36,599 nucleotides of DNA from Candidatus Hydrogenedentota bacterium (GCA_903822375.1 CAIJOU010000590.1:1-36599), one strand, 5' to 3'. Counted from the stretch's first letter, positions 1 to 11,610 are shown. Notes: a model not told the origin generated them from the sequence alone. A program made the numbers and translations.

Positions 1-1054
1 CGTCACCGTTGGCATCTGCCTGCGTGAAAGTATCTGCCAAGAGTTGCTGCACTGTGGCGGCATCAACTGTCGGCCCGCCTTCGCCCTCCACCGGTGGCTC
101 ACCGTCACCCGTCACCTGCGGCTCACCTTCAATCGGCGACTCGCCTTCCACCGGTCCTTCGCCTTCAACCGACGACTCTCCCTCGCCTTCCACCACCGTC
201 ACCTCGCCAGCAGGACGGATTGCCATACTGCAGGCACCCACGACGTTGTCGCCGTTGGAATAGGAGACACTGCGTGAGGTGGTGTCGTCTGTTGGTGTCA
301 TTACGTCCATGCGCACGGAGATGGAGTAGGCAAGTGTCGAACCCAACTGGCCCGTCTCGCCTGCAACGGGGAGCAGACCCGAAAGCGCGGGGGCGGGGAA
401 GGGAACCGGTCCGCCGGAATTTGCCCTGCACACGGCGCCGGTCACGAAGAAACAGCCCATGGGCAACTGCGCCGCAGTTTGCTCCAGACTGGCTGGGCTG
501 GCGGGCTGCGCCTCATTGGTAAAACTGGCGACGGGGGACTCCATGTCCACACCCGCCATTGCAAAATACGCCGCGGACCTATACCAGCTGTTGGGAATGG
601 GGTTACTGCCTGTGCCCTGTATGGTAAACATGGCTCCCGCCTGGGTTCCGTCAATGACGCCCGGAGTCGGGTTCTCGAGATACCAGATGGAAACCATCTC
701 GTTGCCGCTTTTGCGCGGAATGGTCTGTACCCGTGTGAGGTCTTGGGCGGCGGCGAAACTGCCGGCCCTGTAGGAAAAAACGGCGGTGGCGTTGGCTGCG
801 CCCGAACTTGCAGCGACCACGACGAGCAGTTTGGTCCCCACCGGCACGCCGGGGCCTGACATGGCACCGGTGTTGCCCTCGTCCGGCATATGCCAGCAAC
901 CCAGGGGGGTGGTGTCTTGAAGAGCGTTTCCTCTTGTGCTGCTGCCCTTTGCGAGTATTGAAATGGCGGCGCCTGCCGTTTCCGCAACCGTCAGCATTCC
1001 AAACAATGACGCGAGCAGCAACACCGTGAAAATGTGCGTCTTCATGATTCTCAT
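1..1054 (-). CDS. Exported protein with EG-repeat linker and EF-hand-like motif, running off the left edge
   Basis: Not in the ORF track because its stop lies outside the window. ATG at 1054 with GGAG upstream; translates MRIMKTHIFTVLLLASLFGMLTVAETAGA (signal peptide) ... VEGEGESSVEGEGPVEGESPIEGEPQVTGDGEPPVEGEGG ... FTQADANGD (start of an EF-hand-like loop). Confidence 0.85.
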   Translation of the reverse strand, partial: MRIMKTHIFTVLLLASLFGMLTVAETAGAAISILAKGSSTRGNALQDTTPLGCWHMPDEGNTGAMSGPGVPVGTKLLVVVAASSGAANATAVFSYRAGSFAAAQDLTRVQTIPRKSGNEMVSIWYLENPTPGVIDGTQAGAMFTIQGTGSNPIPNSWYRSAAYFAMAGVDMESPVASFTNEAQPASPASLEQTAAQLPMGCFFVTGAVCRANSGGPVPFPAPALSGLLPVAGETGQLGSTLAYSISVRMDVMTPTDDTTSRSVSYSNGDNVVGACSMAIRPAGEVTVVEGEGESSVEGEGPVEGESPIEGEPQVTGDGEPPVEGEGGPTVDAATVQQLLADTFTQADANGD

Positions 1055-1188
1055 GACTTTCCAGCTCCGGGCACCCAAACCATCCCATGCGCGGTTCCGA
1101 ACCGTTGTCGCCGGTCCGACGATTGCGTTATCAATTGCCCGGCAGCCAACGCGCGCATTGCAGCGCCGCCCAATGCGGGTTTGGCAAA

Positions 1189-4733: not shown

Positions 4734-6226
4734 TTTGATTTGGGCTCCGCGGGTTTCTTTTCCAGGGGTTCAATAAGGGAAGGATCGGTCAGGCCGGGAA
4801 ATGAATCGTTTTCAGGCACCGGTATCGCCCGTGCCAGGTACTCCTGGCACCGTCCGGTTTGGCCGCTCGATTCGAGCAGTTGGAAGAAGGCGGTGTCGAA
4901 ATCATAGGCGGCTTTCAGCCGTCCAAGCTGCGCACGCGCATGGGTAAGCGTCGCGTCCACCACCTCCAGCGACGTTGCCACACCCTCCTCGAAGGCCCGT
5001 GTGCGCACGCGCAGATTTTCCGCCGTCAGCGCCAGCGTCGTGTCCAGCGTGTCATACTGCTCCCGTGCCTTTTCCATTTCCTCGTACCGCTTGACGGTGA
5101 GGCTGCGCAGGTCGCGCTGGTATTTTTGCCGCAGATGCGCCACGCGTTCTTCCTGCGCCTTGGCCGCGGACACCTTGTTGCGGACCTGATCCCCGTCAAA
5201 CAGGGTGTACTGGCCGCCAAAACCGAAGGCCCACTTGGGGTCCACGACGCTGCACCCTTCGGGCAGGAGTTCGTACATGCCGAACACGTACGCCGTGGGC
5301 AGGCCCGCACCCTGCTCGGCCCGGACACCCTGGTGCGCCTGTTCGTGCTTGGCGCCCAGCATCGCCAGCACCGGATGCTTGTCGTCCACCGAATCCTGGA
5401 AATACTCCTTTGCCTCCAGGCCCCGCAGGAGAAACAGCGCCGTGGCGGGTTCCACGGGATCGTTCCAGGCCATCGTGTTGGCCAGCCCTTCCGAGGCAAT
5501 CGTCACATCGCGCTCCGCCGCCTCAAGTTCCGCCTTCGCGTTGGCCAGCGCCACTTCCGCATTCAGCGTTTCCGCTTTCGAAATGATACCCTCGTCCATC
5601 AATCGGTGCGCGCGGTGCGCCTGCTGCTCCATCGTGGTTACCTTCAGCGCGGTCACCTCGCGTGCGCGGCGGGCCAGGCACACGCCAAAGTAACGCTGCG
5701 CCAGCTCGGTGACCAACTGGTCCCCCGTGAAACGCAGTTGCGCCTCGGCCTCGTTCTGTTTGGCCGTGGCGGCGCGGTTGGCCGCGTTGATGCGGCCGCC
5801 CGTGTAGACGGGCCAGGTGACCGAAAACTCGGCCTTGGTGAAGTTCTTGTTTTGCATTTTGTAGGCGATTGGAAGCGGGTCAAAAGGGGTGGTGACATCG
5901 GCGTCCAGAAAAGTTGTCCGCAAGTCCAACTCGGCTTTCGGTACTTTGAGCCCCGACACGGCCGCCTTTTCCGCCTCGCGCTGGCGCAGCTCATCGTGGC
6001 CCGCCATGAGGGCCTCATTGCGCTGCTGCACCCGCTGCAGGGCGTCCCCAAAACTCAGGCGCTCCTGCGCCGGGGCTGGGAGGCACAGGAGTGACAGCGC
6101 CACCAACAATCCCATAAGCGCGGCCTTTGCGGCACATGTCCGCCGCGTCCTTGGTTTCATTTCATGCATGATGGTCCGTTTCGAATCTGTCTGCCACACG
6201 AGTTCACCCTGCTTTGCGGGGCTCAA
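4730..6226 (-). CDS. TolC-family outer membrane efflux protein
   Basis: Signal peptide, WPVYTGGR, AFEEGVATSLEVVDA. Start is uncertain (TTG 6226 coupled to the TetR stop, or ATG 6169/6160). Confidence 0.9.
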   Translation of the reverse strand: MSPAKQGELVWQTDSKRTIMHEMKPRTRRTCAAKAALMGLLVALSLLCLPAPAQERLSFGDALQRVQQRNEALMAGHDELRQREAEKAAVSGLKVPKAELDLRTTFLDADVTTPFDPLPIAYKMQNKNFTKAEFSVTWPVYTGGRINAANRAATAKQNEAEAQLRFTGDQLVTELAQRYFGVCLARRAREVTALKVTTMEQQAHRAHRLMDEGIISKAETLNAEVALANAKAELEAAERDVTIASEGLANTMAWNDPVEPATALFLLRGLEAKEYFQDSVDDKHPVLAMLGAKHEQAHQGVRAEQGAGLPTAYVFGMYELLPEGCSVVDPKWAFGFGGQYTLFDGDQVRNKVSAAKAQEERVAHLRQKYQRDLRSLTVKRYEEMEKAREQYDTLDTTLALTAENLRVRTRAFEEGVATSLEVVDATLTHARAQLGRLKAAYDFDTAFFQLLESSGQTGRCQEYLARAIPVPENDSFPGLTDPSLIEPLEKKPAEPKSK

Positions 6227-6852
6227 GCCTCTGAACCCTGATAAGGACCCGACAAGCGCAGACGGGTCAAGGTTTCAATCACACTGTCTGCTGTTGCAAT
6301 GCCAGGATTGCGCGTCCACCAGTCCAATACCTGCAGCAGCATTCCCACAACACCGTGCGCCGCCACCACGGGATCAATACCGGGAACGATGATGCCGTCG
6401 GCGATTCCCTCGCGCACCCGCAATTCCAGCATGGCGGCCAGGTGTTCCGTGATTTCTGTGCTGACGTTCTTGCGGACCGATTCGGGGTCAAAGAGAATCC
6501 GGCAGAGTCCGGTGTGCGACTCTGCAAAACGCACCAGCACCTCCGTGTGCGCCCGTACGGCTGCCGCCGGGTCCGGTGCGGGGGAGAGCGCCATACGTTG
6601 CAGCGCGCCCATGAGTTCTTCAACGCCCTCGCGCATGATGGCGCGCAGCAGCCCCTGCTTGTCCTTGAAATGAAGATAGAGAGTGCCCACGGCGACCCCG
6701 GCCGCCGTGGCAACATCGGAAGCGCGCGTGTCCGCGACCCCCTGCCTGGCAAAAAGCTCCAGACCCGTCTCCAGCAGGCGCCGCCGGGTTTCAATCCGGC
6801 TACGGTCGCGGGCATTTAGGGCCAGCGCAGCATTTGGATGAATTGAGTTCAC
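6223..6852 (-). CDS. TetR/AcrR family transcriptional regulator
   Basis: HTH: LLETGLELFARQG...DVATAAGVAVGTLYLHFKDKQGL. GTG start at 6852. Confidence 0.93.
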   Translation of the reverse strand: MNSIHPNAALALNARDRSRIETRRRLLETGLELFARQGVADTRASDVATAAGVAVGTLYLHFKDKQGLLRAIMREGVEELMGALQRMALSPAPDPAAAVRAHTEVLVRFAESHTGLCRILFDPESVRKNVSTEITEHLAAMLELRVREGIADGIIVPGIDPVVAAHGVVGMLLQVLDWWTRNPGIATADSVIETLTRLRLSGPYQGSEA

Positions 6853-6887
6853 TGAATAATTATATATTCAGTGGCGCCGGATTGCAA
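6851..6887 (-). promoter_or_regulatory. Sigma70 promoter with overlapping palindromic operator, likely bound by the TetR
   Basis: TTGCAA (6887-6882), 17 bp, TATAAT (6864-6859), 6 bp, GTG. Inverted repeat ACTGAATA-N6-TATTCAGT at 6851-6872. Confidence 0.8.
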
Positions 6888-6998
6888 ATGCGTTTTGTGA
6901 AGTGGATTGGGGGCATGAACGCCCGGCCGGGTGTCAACCTGCTCATTCCGAGGTTCAGGAACTCGCGAAACCACGGCCGTTTCGCGAAGTGTGAAGTG

Positions 6999-7053
6999 CT
7001 TTGCCAAAGCTTTACCAAGCCATTGCCGGAACTTCGTATGCGATTGGCACAAT
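6999..7053 (+). promoter_or_regulatory. Regulated promoter copy A (4 heptamers at 11-bp period plus extended -10)
   Basis: CTTTGCC 6999, CTTTACC 7010, CATTGCC 7021, CTTCGTA 7032, 9 bp ending TGG, CACAAT 7048-7053. Confidence 0.7.
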
Positions 7054-7134
7054 GAGGCTCACGAACTGGCCGGCGTTGACCATGACGTTTGCGGCTAACT
7101 TCCCGGGACAGTATCCAGAAAGGACTTCTTTTCC

Positions 7135-7326
7135 ATGAGTACGGTCATCGAATCTTACCCAGGCACGATAAACGCCTGCAGCACCGTGACGGAGGGTGAT
7201 GAACTGGCCCGGAAGTTGGAGAAGGTATTCCAGATATTCCGCCGCGCACAGGAAGACTGGGCCATGAAACACGACCCGGGACAGTCAGCCGGAGGCATGG
7301 AGAAGGATTCCGGCTGTTCTGCCTGA
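7135..7326 (+). CDS. Small hypothetical protein (63 aa)
   Basis: AAAGGA upstream of the ATG; first ORF after promoter A; no recognisable motif. Confidence 0.5.
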   Translation: MSTVIESYPGTINACSTVTEGDELARKLEKVFQIFRRAQEDWAMKHDPGQSAGGMEKDSGCSA

Positions 7327-7422
7327 ATTGACCGGGGAGCGGAGGACTGCGACCAACTTGGGCCGCTTATGGAACCCGGCAGTCAACCACCGCTGCCAAA
7401 CAGCGGGAGCGAGGTGACGAAC

Positions 7423-7713
7423 ATGAACCACGCGATGATGACCAGGGACCATGATTCTGAACAACTGCTTCTGTCGCATCTTGAACTGTGCTATTCGGTG
7501 GCGCTTGCGCTGACCCGCAATGTAAATCTGGCGCTTGCGCTGACGAAAGACACGCTGCTGTGGGCCTGGCAGCGCAACGACGGCTCGTGGGATGAGGATA
7601 TCATGAAAAAATCGCTCTTGCGCGAGTTGCGCGACAGGTATTTGCGCGACTACCAGCTTGCGGGCGGCCGGGGCGCAGCCGGTGAACAACGTCTTCCGAA
7701 AGTGGAAGAGTGA
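7423..7713 (+). CDS. Degenerate ECF sigma factor-like protein, region 2 only (96 aa)
   Basis: RBS GAGGTG before ATG 7423. EQLLLSHLELCYSVALALTRNVNLALALTKDTLLWAW...MKKSLLRELRDRYL aligns by eye with ECF sigma region 2; there is no region 4. Confidence 0.65.
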   Translation: MNHAMMTRDHDSEQLLLSHLELCYSVALALTRNVNLALALTKDTLLWAWQRNDGSWDEDIMKKSLLRELRDRYLRDYQLAGGRGAAGEQRLPKVEE

Positions 7714-8018
7714 AGGACTACGCGGAAGGTCCCGTCGGCGGCAGGCTCGGCGTGCGCATTGGACCCGAATGGACAGAGGTGCGTATTCCACGCGCAGAGA
7801 CGGAAGAGCAGCATTCTTCCCTGGAAGAGGAACTCCTGTCATACCTTGACCGCCATTCCGCAACCACGTGGGCCATAGACCTGTCCGAACATGTGGGCGG
7901 CGTGACTCTCGCACTTGCCGGAATGCTTGCCCGCTTCCGGGAAGAGGCGCGGCGACGGGGTTGCGAGGTGAGGTACTCGGGGCTGAGGCAGGACTGCGTA
8001 TCCTGCCTGGCCGAATAG
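7710..8018 (+). CDS. STAS-like (anti-anti-sigma/MlaB-like) small protein
   Basis: GTGA overlap with the upstream gene. WAIDLSEHVGGVTLALAGMLARFREEARRRGCEVRYSGL resembles the STAS core. Confidence 0.55.
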   Translation: MKDYAEGPVGGRLGVRIGPEWTEVRIPRAETEEQHSSLEEELLSYLDRHSATTWAIDLSEHVGGVTLALAGMLARFREEARRRGCEVRYSGLRQDCVSCLAE

Positions 8019-8169
8019 GAGGGGGAACAGCACGGCATCTTTCGCCTGAACGGCAGCGCCTTGGGGGGCTGCATCGGCAGTGCTGGCGGATTGGCCTTGA
8101 TTTTGCATGCGCGAATCTTCAGGTTGCCGCGGCTTCACGGTTCTGAAATGCGAAAATCACCCCATTCTC

Positions 8170-10029
8170 TCACCGCGCAACGCCGCATCCACCCACGATG
8201 GTGATTGACGAATAGAATTCACTGCGCATTATAAAGTTGTAGTACAGGGGGCCGAGGTTCCGGCCAAAAACAATCAGGGGGAGATTGCCCAGCTTCAGGG
8301 CAATCGTATCCTCGACGTCGCCAAAGGGGCATGCGCCCGTGTCGGCCACAAAATCGGAAAGGCGCCCCCTTACAGGCGTGACGCTGAACGACGAGGTCCC
8401 AAAAACGCTGACAAAAGCCTTCCCGGGTATAAAGGACTGGGGGGCGATCCTCTGCGCATTGGGCGATATCCCCGGGAGCAGGAAGAGGTCTTCAAGAGCC
8501 TCGTAGCTGTACAACCAGCCGGTTGCATAGGCCATGTAATAATGCGTTGTCTTGTCGTTCAGGGAGTGGTCGACCGCCGTCAGTTTCCAGCATTGGCACC
8601 CGTTGATTATGAACTCCTCCGAAACCTCCGCGCTGATCCCATCGTTTCCATGGGTTCCCGGCGTCACCCATCTATTGCCGACCGCAAGCGGGTAATAGTC
8701 ACAGATTGAGATGCTCCTCGTGGAGAGCACCAGATTCACCGGAGTGCCCGGAGGCACCAGCGTTCCTTTTGCCGGATCCTGGCCTGTCACGCTGCCTTCT
8801 GGAACGGTGTCACTGTACTGCTCTGTTATCGTGCCCACAGTCAGGCCCGCGCTGGTTACGGTTGCCTGTGCATCCGTCTGGGTTCTTCCTGCCGCATTGG
8901 GCACGGCCACCGGTTGCGGACCCTGTGAAAAAACAAGACTGACCGCAGTACCCGGAATCATGATTATGCCGGCGGCCGGGTCCTGGCCAATCACGCGGCC
9001 TGCAGGCACGGTCACGCTCCACACCTGGTTCACACTGCCCAAGGAAAAACCCGCACCCGTAACCGTCGCCTCCGCATCGGACCGGGTTTTCCCGGCGACA
9101 TCCGGGACGGCCACCGACTGCGGTCCCTGGGAAACAGCCAGGTCAACTGCCGTACCCGGAACTGTCATCGCGTCGGCGGCAGGATTCTGACTTATTACGC
9201 AGCCCGCCGGCACTGTTGCACTGGACCCCGGCACCACACTGCCAATGGTGAAACCCGCGGACACCATTGCGGTTTCGGCATCTGCCTCAGTCCTGCCCAC
9301 CACGTTGGGCACAGCCACCGGTTGCGGCCCCTGCGATACGGTCAGACTAACCGTCGCACCGGGCAACGTGAGCGTTGCCGCTGCCGGATCCTGGCTGATA
9401 ACGTTACCCGCCGCAGTCAACGGGTTGTGGAGTTGTGTCACGGTGCCCACGGTCAGGCCCGCTTCCGTGATAACGGTTTGCGCCTCGGCCCGCACCCGGC
9501 CCACCACGTCGGGCACGACTGCCGGCTGCGGCCCGAGGGAACACAACAGGTCCACACCCGCGCCGGAGGACACGCCCGTCCCCGCTGCCGGGTCTTGGCT
9601 AATCAGGTTGCCCGCGGGAACCGTTGCGCTGTATGCCCACCGGATATTCCCCGGCTTGAGCCCTTCCGGGAGCAGAGTCGCCTGCGCTTGGGACAGCGTG
9701 ATGCCCGTGACGTCGGGAACCGTCATGGAACCCGTCTTGGTGCATCCGCCAACCGTACCGGAAGCAAATGCGTTCAGCAAAGACAAGAACCGTATCACAG
9801 GATTCTGGCTGGTCACGTTGCCGGCGCTTGCCGTCGCCCTGTCCGGCCACCGGATACTTCCCGGCATCAGCCCCTCCAGGAGCAGGGGCATTCCCCCCTG
9901 TGTCTGCGTGATGTTCGTGGGAACGGGAACGAGCATGAAGGCCGGCTGGGAGCATCCTCCAACCACAAAGTATGCAGCCAGTACCATCAGCACCAAGCCC
10001 AAATACCGACACCTGACGAGAATGCACAT
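8170..10029 (-). CDS. Multi-PASTA domain putative lipoprotein (5 PASTA repeats plus an unknown C-terminal domain)
   Basis: ATG 10029 after GAGGAG; hydrophobic stretch ending VGGC; five repeats of about 68 aa (VPDVTG/VPDVVG/VPNVVG/VPDVAG/VPNAAG...SQDPAAG); C-terminal domain begins DYYPLAVGNRW. Confidence 0.9.
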   Translation of the reverse strand: MCILVRCRYLGLVLMVLAAYFVVGGCSQPAFMLVPVPTNITQTQGGMPLLLEGLMPGSIRWPDRATASAGNVTSQNPVIRFLSLLNAFASGTVGGCTKTGSMTVPDVTGITLSQAQATLLPEGLKPGNIRWAYSATVPAGNLISQDPAAGTGVSSGAGVDLLCSLGPQPAVVPDVVGRVRAEAQTVITEAGLTVGTVTQLHNPLTAAGNVISQDPAAATLTLPGATVSLTVSQGPQPVAVPNVVGRTEADAETAMVSAGFTIGSVVPGSSATVPAGCVISQNPAADAMTVPGTAVDLAVSQGPQSVAVPDVAGKTRSDAEATVTGAGFSLGSVNQVWSVTVPAGRVIGQDPAAGIIMIPGTAVSLVFSQGPQPVAVPNAAGRTQTDAQATVTSAGLTVGTITEQYSDTVPEGSVTGQDPAKGTLVPPGTPVNLVLSTRSISICDYYPLAVGNRWVTPGTHGNDGISAEVSEEFIINGCQCWKLTAVDHSLNDKTTHYYMAYATGWLYSYEALEDLFLLPGISPNAQRIAPQSFIPGKAFVSVFGTSSFSVTPVRGRLSDFVADTGACPFGDVEDTIALKLGNLPLIVFGRNLGPLYYNFIMRSEFYSSITIVGGCGVAR

Positions 10030-10190
10030 GCCGTTCTCCTCAGAAAAGCTGTCCCGGCACCTCCACCACAGACACCTTGTTAAGCATGAACGTTCCTTTC
10101 TCGAAGCCTTGGGGCTCACAGTTTAACCTTGGATCCGTGAAGGCTGTCGTAATGACCGCGGCAGCCGCCTGCGGCCGTTTCGCCAGCTTT

Positions 10191-10245
10191 ATTGTGGCAA
10201 AGGCAGGTAAAATTCATGCAAAGGTTTGGCAAATTTTAGGTAAAG
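10191..10245 (-). promoter_or_regulatory. Regulated promoter copy B (PASTA gene)
   Basis: Minus strand: CTTTACC, ATTTGCC, CTTTGCA, TTTTACC at 11-bp period, 9 bp ending TGC, CACAAT (10196-10191). Confidence 0.7.
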
Positions 10246-10300
10246 AAATCCCCTTTCGCAATCAGACGGGCACGGATTGTCGGCCTGAGCGAAGTCCCGC

Positions 10301-10489
10301 TTACTGTCTCAGCCTTTGCACAAACTCGTTGAGAAGTTCCTCGTGCGCCTGATGACCCTTCACACAGCCATAGCGGTCTTGGAGCTTGTCGACAACACTG
10401 CGATGCTTGAAGTAAATGGTCGCCGCGGCGGCAACACAAAGTCGTCCCACGTTCTCCCTGAACTTTCCTAAGGGCTGTTCCCTGTTCAT
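10301..10489 (-). CDS. CsbD/YjbJ-like small stress protein, divergent
   Basis: Strong RBS AGGAGA. MNREQPLGKFRENVG...VVDKLQDRYG...AHEELLNEF resembles YjbJ (MNKDEAGGNWKQFKG...LVGKIQERYG...AEKEVVDW). Confidence 0.6.
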   Translation of the reverse strand: MNREQPLGKFRENVGRLCVAAAATIYFKHRSVVDKLQDRYGCVKGHQAHEELLNEFVQRLRQ

Positions 10490-10584
10490 GGTTTGTCTCC
10501 TATAAGACTGAACTTCATCTATCCACGCCCGTAAAGGCTGGTACCGTGACTGCCACGGTCACCCGGGGGCATTTCTTCAACCTC

Positions 10585-10639
10585 ATTGTGCCAAACGCAG
10601 GTAAAGTCCCGGCAAAGGTGCGGCAACGATTGGGCAAAG
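10585..10639 (-). promoter_or_regulatory. Regulated promoter copy C (CsbD-like gene)
   Basis: Minus strand: CTTTGCC, CGTTGCC, CTTTGCC, CTTTACC at 11-bp period, 9 bp ending TGG, CACAAT (10590-10585). Confidence 0.72.
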
Positions 10640-10665
10640 AATTCCGCTTTGCGAAGGGTGTGATT

Positions 10666-10720
10666 CTTTGCCAAAGCTTTACGCGCATTTTGCCCACGCT
10701 TCATGTCCCCCTGCTAACCT
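10666..10720 (+). promoter_or_regulatory. Regulated promoter copy D (BON gene)
   Basis: CTTTGCC 10666, CTTTACG 10677, TTTTGCC 10688, CTTCATG 10699, 9 bp ending TGC, TAACCT 10715-10720. Confidence 0.68.
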
Positions 10721-10830
10721 CCATGCGTGGCCGGCTTGTCGCCGACGCATGGATGTTGGCGCGCCCGCCCGGACGCGCCACTGGAACCGGGGCAATTCCC
10801 CACAAACCAAGAATGAATCGAGGAAACACA

Positions 10831-11610
10831 ATGACACTGAAAGCAATGTATCCCCTGGCGTTTGCGGCGGCTGTGGCCGCACTGTTCGTGGTCTGCATGC
10901 CCGCGCGCGCGTCGGGTGCCGATGACGGGATCAAGTCGTCGTTCACGCAGAGCTACGTCTATAAGACCTATCTCAAGGACGACGCGGTCAAGATCGAGGC
11001 CAAAGACGGCGTCGTCACGCTGACCGGAACGGTGGCCGAGGAATCCCACAAGAACCTGGCGCAGGAGACCGCCGCGAACCTGGCCGGGGTCAGCCGCGTG
11101 GACAATCAACTCACGACCAAAACCCCGGTCTCCGCCGAACTCTCGGATGCCTGGGTCACGGGAAAAGTGAAACTCGCGCTGCTGTTCCATCGCAGTGTCA
11201 ACGTCGTCAAGACCAACGTCGACGTGAAAGACAGAATCGTGACGCTGAAAGGCGAAGCGTCAAGCGTCGCCCAGAAGGAACTGACCACGGAATATGTGAA
11301 GGATGTCGCAGGCGTGAAAGGGGTGAAGAACGAAATGACGGTGGCGGCGACTCCGGAACCGCAGACGAGAACCGCAGGCGAGAAAATCGATGACGCTTCC
11401 ATCAGCGCACAGGTCAAGTTGGCACTGCTGACCCATCAATCGACCAGTGCCGCCAAGACCAAGGTTCAGACACGGGACGGCGTGGTCACGTTGACGGGCA
11501 TTGCAAAGAATGCGGCCGAGAAGACCCTTGTCACCAAGCTGGTCGAAGACATTCAGGGGGTGACCAGCGTGAAGAACGAAATGACCGTCGAAGAAGTCAA
11601 AACCAAGTAG
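10831..11610 (+). CDS. OsmY-like periplasmic protein with three BON domains
   Basis: ATG 10831 after GAGGAA; signal peptide; three repeats (KDGVVTLTGTV..GVSRVDNQL; KDRIVTLKG..GVKGVKNEM; RDGVVTLTG..GVTSVKNEM). Confidence 0.92.
   Translation: MTLKAMYPLAFAAAVAALFVVCMPARASGADDGIKSSFTQSYVYKTYLKDDAVKIEAKDGVVTLTGTVAEESHKNLAQETAANLAGVSRVDNQLTTKTPVSAELSDAWVTGKVKLALLFHRSVNVVKTNVDVKDRIVTLKGEASSVAQKELTTEYVKDVAGVKGVKNEMTVAATPEPQTRTAGEKIDDASISAQVKLALLTHQSTSAAKTKVQTRDGVVTLTGIAKNAAEKTLVTKLVEDIQGVTSVKNEMTVEEVKTK

Follow-up and report, generated by a model that had tools for sequence, protein, structure and literature searches.

The stretch analysed here, a 36,599-nucleotide contig (C590; hereafter the window) of a 6.25-Mb metagenome-assembled genome of a Candidatus Hydrogenedentota bacterium (GCA_903822375.1, CAIJOU010000590.1:1-36599; 967 contigs, 82.7% complete), encodes a 96-residue protein, the product of open reading frame 2 (ORF2), that corresponds to region 2 (sigma-2) of an extracytoplasmic function (ECF) sigma factor but to no other part of it. 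Its gene overlaps that of a small STAS-like protein, ORF3. Judged by its relatives, ORF2 is a member of a conserved and constrained family of short proteins and not a decaying gene. Profile comparisons show this sigma-2-only family, so far found in the phylum Candidatus Hydrogenedentes, to be derived from the SigH/SigR-like ECF sigma of that phylum. The reading that we prefer, with a probability of roughly 0.45, is that ORF2 is a non-transcribing pseudo-sigma inside a partner-switching module.

ORF2 corresponds to the sigma-2 half of an ECF sigma factor

Pfam gave no match for ORF2 alone at E ≤ 1, and three ECF sigma models of NCBIfam matched it far below the model cut-offs (best E 4.2e-5, residues 8–73). 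Profile comparisons were more sensitive. A profile of 14 relatives, compared with solved structures, matched the sigma-2 domain of SigR (1h3l, E 5.6e-7) and then four ECF sigmas, with 11 matches in total, and alignment of 115 short relatives with 24 full-length ECF sigmas of the same order (hhalign) gave 99.8% and E 7e-29. The match covers residues 6–96 of a 200-residue full-length sigma, which is exactly the sigma-2 half. Three relatives (P0106, P0092, and P0159) also exceed the Pfam cut-off for Sigma70_r2. On these profile matches, the likeness of ORF2 to sigma-2 is far beyond chance.

A full-length sigma of 200 residues is encoded elsewhere in the same genome (G000:C872); it matches Pfam Sigma70_r2 and r4_2, and its best NCBIfam model is SigH_actino (194 bits, below the model cut-off). 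ORF2 itself ends 18 residues past region 2.4, no match to region 4 (Sigma70_r4 or r4_2) was found in ORF2 or ORF3, and the next gene is the STAS-like one. The ORF2 frame is open from an ATG at 7369 (114 residues), a start that has no ribosome-binding site, whereas the ATG at 7423 is preceded by GAGG (7411–7414) with a spacing of 8 nt. The latter start yields 96 residues and fits the relatives, which span 91–128 residues. An earlier note on this DNA had described a region-2-only, ECF-like ORF of 96 residues with a good ribosome-binding site, ending without a region 4 and sharing a GTGA overlap with a STAS-like ORF, and all of this is borne out.

ORF2 belongs to a conserved short family

A word-indexed search returned 12 short relatives besides the query (96–165 residues), none of which (0/12) has a Pfam domain, and a search for related loci with the 14-sequence alignment found four loci in genomes and two in metagenomes. 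An exhaustive profile search yielded 241 cluster representatives at E ≤ 1e-3 and 98 at E ≤ 1e-10; of the 150 listed among these 241, 137 are no longer than 170 residues. Within 41 related genomes, clearly short forms occur at 13 loci in the five genomes of the genus of the window and in one other genome; in a phylum-wide set of 135 genomes, the matches listed add at least 11 more genomes with short forms. The full-length copy is present once per genome, in 39 of the 41 related genomes and 129 of the 135 phylum genomes.

Pairwise dN/dS values were 0.10–0.50 in a subgroup with proteins of 127 residues, 0.16–0.63 in the subgroup of the window, and 0.18–0.48 in the partner genes of the latter; these values are rough, dS being near or beyond saturation, although not one comes close to 1. 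At the same position, close relatives carry no full-length ECF sigma gene. These results, together with the retention of a 4-nt overlap in half of the pairs of the genus (see below), uphold the view of the earlier note that the intact coupling argues against decay.

The possibility that ORF2 is what remains of a decaying full-length ECF sigma gene, to which its end right after region 2.4 and its loss of the motifs typical of a working sigma might point, is therefore negligible and in practice refuted by the short family, in which length, ends, and ORF3 coupling are conserved, dN/dS stays below 1, and a conserved STAS-like gene, and no remnant of region 4, lies downstream.

Residues kept and lost in the short family

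The 115 short proteins and the 24 full-length sigmas were compared column by column. Both groups share the hydrophobic core and the surface residues F12, E13, H19, T31, R32, N/D33, K62, R70, and Y77, which are located in the first and the last helix. In contrast, several positions that are 95–100% conserved in the full-length sigmas vary in the short family, namely D36, D39, Q42, and N43 of region 2.2, the loop K54–Y60, and W64, I68, N71, and N75. In the short family, D36 is kept in 33% and D39 in 27% of the proteins, and position 42 is Arg in 61%. Where full-length sigmas read D-A-x-D-L-T-Q-N in region 2.2, ORF2 reads L-A-L-A-L-T-K-D, and Ser takes the place of the invariant Trp, in agreement with the loss of core-binding motif and Trp described earlier. 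The short family has also gained residues: Arg42, Cys23 (77%), and Trp49 (91%).

For Mycobacterium tuberculosis SigH, Li et al. (2019, PMC6411747) reported reduced or abolished transcription when F72, T76, N77, W81, I85, N88, or I91 was replaced by Ala. We mapped these positions with a HMMER alignment of our own (chain index = residue number + 2, checked on 13 named residues), in which the register of the specificity loop may be off by about one residue. The seven residues correspond to S, D, I, S, E, D, and L in ORF2 (0/7 identical), while the 24 full-length Hydrogenedentes sigmas keep six of the seven at 95–100%. Having lost region 4, the acidic patch of region 2.2, and the residues for reading and opening the −10 element, ORF2 most likely cannot direct transcription.

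Cys23, in helix 1, replaces a Leu of the full-length sigmas and is present in ORF2 of the window. The STAS-like partners of the 127-residue subgroup (L027 4326–4694, L028, L004, and L029) carry a C-terminal His/Cys-x3-Cys-x6-Cys-x2-Cys motif, and ORF3 of the window has Cys85, Cys96, and Cys99. Together, the gained Cys and the Cys motif of the partners give a hint of possible metal or redox sensing, as in zinc-binding anti-sigma factors.

ORF3 and its association with ORF2

ORF3 matches Pfam STAS_2 with E 1.7e-5 and 25.3 bits, under the cut-off of 29.2 bits, and a precomputed table lists PF13466 for it; its relatives score more weakly on the Pfam STAS models than ORF3 does. When the profile of the ORF3 family was compared with solved structures, the best matches were an MlaB-type “anti-sigma factor antagonist”, RsbS, and RsbR. 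All of these are STAS proteins, but since the matches reach only E 0.3–1.2, an α/β STAS fold is likely for ORF3 and not proven. Seven positions are invariant in the family (11/11): W54, D57-L58-S59, G64, T66, and L67. The loop that the earlier note had read as G-V-T-L-A is indeed present, at residues 64–68, and the STAS-like character given to ORF3 in the same note is supported by a match that stays below the cut-off.

At E ≤ 1e-16, ORF3 relatives occur at nine loci in the genus, and at eight of these they lie directly 3′ of a short sigma-2 gene; seen from the other side, 8 of the 13 short sigma-2 loci of the genus adjoin an ORF3 relative. Four of the eight pairs (the window, G004:C391, G002:C524, and G002:C782) overlap by 4 nt, and the remaining four are separated by 1–4 nt. 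G084:C56 shows the opposite arrangement, the STAS-like gene coming first and the sigma-2-only gene second. Moreover, six representatives from the exhaustive search are single fused proteins of 222–362 residues, which match the ORF3 family toward the N-terminus (95.7%, E 9e-9, residues 4–87 of 258) and the ORF2 family toward the C-terminus (99.0%, E 3.5e-18, residues 145–223). In Pfam, all six fusions match Sigma70_r2 (E 2e-6 to 0.054, P0159 alone exceeding the cut-off), and four of them also show a weak STAS or STAS_2 match.

Adjacency in both orders, together with fusion, is the strongest evidence that the sigma-2 and STAS proteins act jointly. Because the two genes are coupled, adjoin in either order, and can be fused, ORF2 and ORF3 most likely bind each other. 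Prediction of an ORF2–ORF3 complex gave a score of 0.01 (mark 0.32), which counts neither for nor against binding.

The only ORF3-like gene without a recognizable sigma-2-only gene upstream (L034, G001:C20, 2267–2557, minus strand) sits after a polysaccharide-synthesis gene, as does the complete pair in G004:C391; its sigma-2 partner may be gone or may have changed too far to be recognized. A subfamily that includes the fusions (P0057, P0060, P0113, P0159, P0097, and P0123; L070 1534–1935) has a conserved hydrophobic C-terminal tail, Leu-Val/Ala-Ala-Ala-Leu, which is absent from ORF2 of the window and may be a docking or degradation signal.

RsbW-type kinases and other neighbors of sigma-2-only genes

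Two representatives fuse HATPase_c_2, the domain of RsbW-type kinases, to sigma-2 (E about 1e-12 to 1e-13). In the genome of the window, a paralogue of ORF2 (G000:C407) is flanked by two kinase-type genes, of which the downstream one is confirmed by Pfam; the upstream one has no Pfam family at E ≤ 0.001 and was recognized by its likeness to the downstream one (E 3.8e-40). A further small RsbW-type protein of this genome is encoded on contig C266. A kinase-type gene also lies two genes upstream of the sigma-2-only gene at G044:C129. The row at G084:C56 comprises a kinase gene, a 123-residue ORF, the STAS-like gene, and the sigma-2-only gene, a set that reads like the parts list of an RsbV–RsbW–SigB type module in which a half-sigma would replace the sigma.

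Other neighbors may be unrelated to sigma control. At seven loci in six genera (L082, which is G000:C407, and L081, L076, L079, L080, L078, and L077), the sigma-2-only gene lies directly 3′ of a nucleotidyltransferase gene (NTP_transferase, about 360 residues), which ends at or overlaps its start. The best NCBIfam match of the nucleotidyltransferase is to the N-terminal part of mannose-1-phosphate guanylyltransferase, below the cut-off, and the isomerase part is missing. RsbW-type kinase genes flank the nucleotidyltransferase/sigma-2 pair in two of the seven loci. At G084:C30 (L051/L078) a separate DUF2007 gene follows the sigma-2-only gene, and at G131:C440 (L050/L077) and G126:C218 (L054/L080) sigma-2 is fused to a C-terminal extension of about 100 residues. 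No Pfam family was found in the extension of L050, the one scanned; by eye, its Cys-rich start looks like a zinc ribbon. Genes for receiver domains are common near sigma-2-only loci.

The full-length sigma gene of the genome of the window (L005, G000:C872, 1195–1797, plus strand) is divergent from a gene at 260–1093 (minus strand), which by eye we take to encode an Fe/Mn superoxide dismutase.

A repeated promoter-like module and the layout of the locus

The “promoter copy A” of the earlier note is a real repeated element with five aligned copies in the genome, three in the window and two on contig C150 (Table 1). The 41-nt core of the module contains a near-palindrome, a TTTACC-like hexamer, a second repeat, TTTGCC, and a TCGTAT-like hexamer 17 nt past the first hexamer; we read the TTTACC-like and TCGTAT-like hexamers as −35 and −10 elements. 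Around copy A the repeat similarity extends over 6977–7084. A degenerate pattern of the module had four forward matches in the genome against none for the reversed control, and a looser pattern added one match, at an unrelated locus (L075) in another genome.

Table 1. Features of the ORF1–3 locus, its surroundings, and the copies of the promoter module
Feature	Position	Strand	Basis or remark
TetR/efflux operon, divergent, on the left	6223..6852 and leftwards		
Promoter/operator module copy A, core	6999..7039	+	about 95 nt upstream of the ORF1 ATG
ORF1, 63 aa, orphan	7135..7326	+	open frame; real leader gene or mere 5′-region frame
Antisense frame, 209 aa	7285..7914	−	no family
ORF2, 96 aa, sigma-2-domain-only “pseudo-sigma” (candidate)	7423..7713	+	profile comparisons, motif alignment
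GTGA overlap of ORF3 start GTG (7710–7712) and ORF2 stop TGA (7711–7713)	7710..7713	+	sequence
ORF3, 102 aa, STAS_2-like partner	7710..8018	+	weak Pfam STAS_2 match, family alignment
649-aa protein with five PASTA domains, convergent	8170..10119	−	right of ORF1–3
62-aa ORF	10301..10489	−	weak NCBIfam PRK10428 match, E 3.8e-4
Module copy	10599..10639	−	
Module copy	10666..10706	+	
259-aa protein with three BON domains	10831..11610	+	likely ATG 10831; longer frame from 10546 overshoots
Module copies on C150 (L031)	G000:C150:4442–4464 and 7193–7215		among the five aligned copies

About 90–150 nt downstream of the copies lie ORF1–3, a 62-residue ORF, a BON gene, a lipoprotein-like gene (followed by a gene with WXXGXW repeats), and dnaK; the 62-residue ORF and the BON gene are divergent, behind two back-to-back copies. 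These genes mark the module as a candidate stress or heat-shock regulon, and because the module is common to dnaK and the BON-domain gene, the copy before ORF1–3 is probably induced by stress. The module was not found before other sigma-2-only loci; apart from the L075 match of the looser pattern, it is confined to the window and contig C150.

ORF1, ORF2, and ORF3 are co-oriented. The earlier note had treated the three as a unit, a view that does not extend to ORF1: a search of five genomes of the genus brought up no relatives (best E 0.059), neither Pfam nor NCBIfam has a matching family, and ORF1 has no similarity to the 62-residue ORF behind the sister module copy. Its GC content by codon position is coding-like but not decisive. 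We treat ORF1 as a putative orphan of uncertain reality, outside any conserved trio.

The 209-residue frame on the opposite strand is, in our reading, a by-product of the G+C-rich sequence. A terminator scan of 6700–8300 found none, and an Rfam scan of 6500–11000 gave nothing beyond a chance-level microRNA match. In another genome of the genus, a paralogous pair (G001:C110) adjoins a gene (L027, 335–3343) for a 1002-residue Kelch/Ig-like/PASTA surface protein; the proximity of PASTA genes may be coincidence or an envelope link. A search for sequencing runs with matching sequence listed no RNA run; the DNA runs are lake-water and peat metagenomes. Four of them gave near-identical short contigs with a single difference, in ORF1 (7307 A>G, one run). 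They also held a short piece of one relative, and the material is insufficient to test a population.

Proposed mechanism and alternative explanations

ORF2 keeps the helical core and the N-terminal helix of the sigma. As a pseudo-sigma it would take the place of the sigma in a partner switch, in which ORF3 would hold or release it according to a signal. One possible signal would be phosphorylation of the invariant Thr66 of ORF3, at the position that we take to be equivalent to the phosphorylated Ser of RsbV-type antagonists, by an RsbW-type kinase; candidate kinases would resemble those fused to, or encoded beside, relatives of ORF2. The freed pseudo-sigma would then occupy a regulator, most plausibly an RsbW-type anti-sigma, that otherwise holds a true ECF sigma. 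The outcome would be a PhyR-like sigma mimicry built from separate proteins, with STAS replacing the receiver domain. The complete circuit, in which a STAS protein of Hydrogenedentes holds a stand-alone sigma-2 mimic that, once released, titrates an RsbW-type anti-sigma and so switches on a real sigma, is somewhat less probable than the preferred reading, and we put it forward tentatively.

The decoy sigma plus STAS stress switch that the earlier note had envisaged thus stands in part. It is supported by the truncated yet conserved ORF2, its STAS coupling, the kinases fused to or beside relatives, and the promoter module shared with dnaK and the BON-domain gene, which fits a stress role, whereas titration is a conjecture. 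Several observations speak against the proposal. No kinase, phosphatase, or anti-sigma gene lies near ORF2–ORF3 within the window, and no conserved anti-sigma gene, the supposed target of the decoy, was found beside or downstream of the full-length sigma in 24 loci. The STAS assignment of ORF3 carries the low scores given above, and 5 of the 13 short loci of the genus have no STAS neighbor. The fusions carry Leu-Pro at the Val-Thr of ORF3 (Thr66 to Pro), so phosphorylation at this site cannot be general. The uncertain loop register of the SigH mapping counts on the same side, and the seven nucleotidyltransferase loci mean that the family may serve partners unrelated to sigma factors.

This last point leads to the strongest competitor, which we consider improbable, though less so than the others: the sigma-2 fold may have found a second use as an all-purpose adaptor for protein binding, unrelated to sigma control, ORF2 regulating or scaffolding the proteins encoded with it, which are STAS proteins here and nucleotidyltransferases, DUF2007 domains, and response regulators elsewhere. 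The NTP_transferase genes that run up to or into the sigma-2-only start, the DUF2007 neighbor, the C-terminal extensions, and the receiver-domain genes near several loci all fit such an adaptor, as does the variability of the surface positions by which full-length sigmas engage polymerase and DNA. However, the domains actually fused to sigma-2, STAS-like and RsbW-type kinase, are those of two classic sigma-control proteins. In addition, F12, E13, H19, T31-R32-N/D33, K62, R70, and Y77 are kept as in full-length sigmas, and this conservation of common surface residues suggests a binding partner shared with them.

With a still lower probability, ORF2 would bind the core of RNA polymerase at the β′ coiled-coil and block the binding of sigma, with ORF3 as the antagonist. 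Sigma-2 is the core-binding domain of all sigma-70-family factors, and helix 2 is partly kept in the short family (A37, L40, T/A41, and A48). Yet in the short family the conservation of acidic and Gln residues in region 2.2 is lost, and the sigma-2 of SigH is described as making extensive electrostatic contacts with the β′ coiled-coil via conserved residues (PMC6411747).

Even less probable is a split sigma whose region 4 is encoded elsewhere. Separate sigma-2 polypeptides exist, according to the Tn916 preprint and PMC7826278, and one short frame of 106 residues with a region-4 match is present in the genome, on contig C875. Of the 27 region-4 matches in the genome, however, this is the only one in a short frame, and its contig is not that of ORF2. 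Neighbors at none of the loci examined match region 4, the partner is STAS-like and no helix-turn-helix protein, and none of the seven SigH residues for −10 reading and melting is kept.

Significance and comparison with known systems

Sigma-factor surveys generally require both sigma-2 and sigma-4, because of which sigma-2-only proteins tend to go uncounted. A large re-classification of ECF sigmas names split-domain ECFs such as SigO–RsoA as still to be explored (PMC7826278). A full-text literature search, in which subscription journals were not covered, returned no account of a module that combines a sigma-2-only protein with STAS, and none on sigma regulation in Hydrogenedentes.

The roughly 240 sequence clusters indicate that one phylum has kept, multiplied, and rewired a half-sigma with STAS and RsbW-type kinase partners. 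If the complete circuit exists, it would be a sigma-mimicry switch without precedent outside Alphaproteobacteria, evolved independently of PhyR, assembled from separate small proteins, and present in several parallel copies per genome. A true decoy would mean that sigma mimicry has had more than one origin and lends itself to modular construction, which bears on the evolution of stress signaling, and it would provide small orthogonal parts for synthetic circuits. Should ORF2 have another function, it would exemplify a new role for the sigma-2 fold. In both cases the pair is small, looks soluble, and is easily tested in vitro.

In principle the proposed module would resemble PhyR–NepR–EcfG, the general stress switch of Alphaproteobacteria, with which it would share an ECF-derived, sigma-like, non-transcribing domain joined to a signal-receiving domain, fusions of STAS and sigma-2 being present in the ORF2 family. 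PhyR combines sigma-2-like and sigma-4-like parts with a receiver domain in one protein and binds NepR (see also PMC4551977), whereas here there is sigma-2 only, mostly as a separate small protein, with a STAS-like partner and in a different phylum. Neither ORF2 nor ORF3 matches a receiver domain in Pfam, and a NepR-like gene was not recognized. A language-model search placed ORF2 near a cluster of 73-residue proteins with PhyR_sigma2 only (score 0.91), which we regard as a lead only.

The RsbV–RsbW–SigB and SpoIIAA–SpoIIAB–SigF systems resemble the row at G084:C56 in bringing together a STAS antagonist, a HATPase_c_2 kinase, and a sigma-derived protein. Here, in contrast, the “sigma” is a 96-residue sigma-2 domain, the kinase is missing from the locus in the window, and no PP2C phosphatase was seen; in alignments, the G-V-T-L-A loop of ORF3 is closer to the MlaB type of STAS_2.

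SigO–RsoA of Bacillus subtilis and Sig7–Sig8 of Tn916 likewise have sigma-2 on a small polypeptide of its own. In both systems a partner supplies region 4 and the pair functions as an active sigma (Tn916 preprint; PMC7826278), whereas the partner of ORF2 is STAS-like and its −10 residues are gone. In SigSsdA–SipA of Actinoplanes missouriensis, finally, a sigma is joined to a STAS domain, through which it is bound by a kinase-type anti-sigma, and the sigma domain is complete and functional (PMC10733313); the ORF2 family, by comparison, has sigma-2 only, and its domains are mostly on separate proteins. The ORF2–ORF3 pair has the defining features of none of PhyR, RsbV/RsbW, split sigma factors, and SigSsdA.

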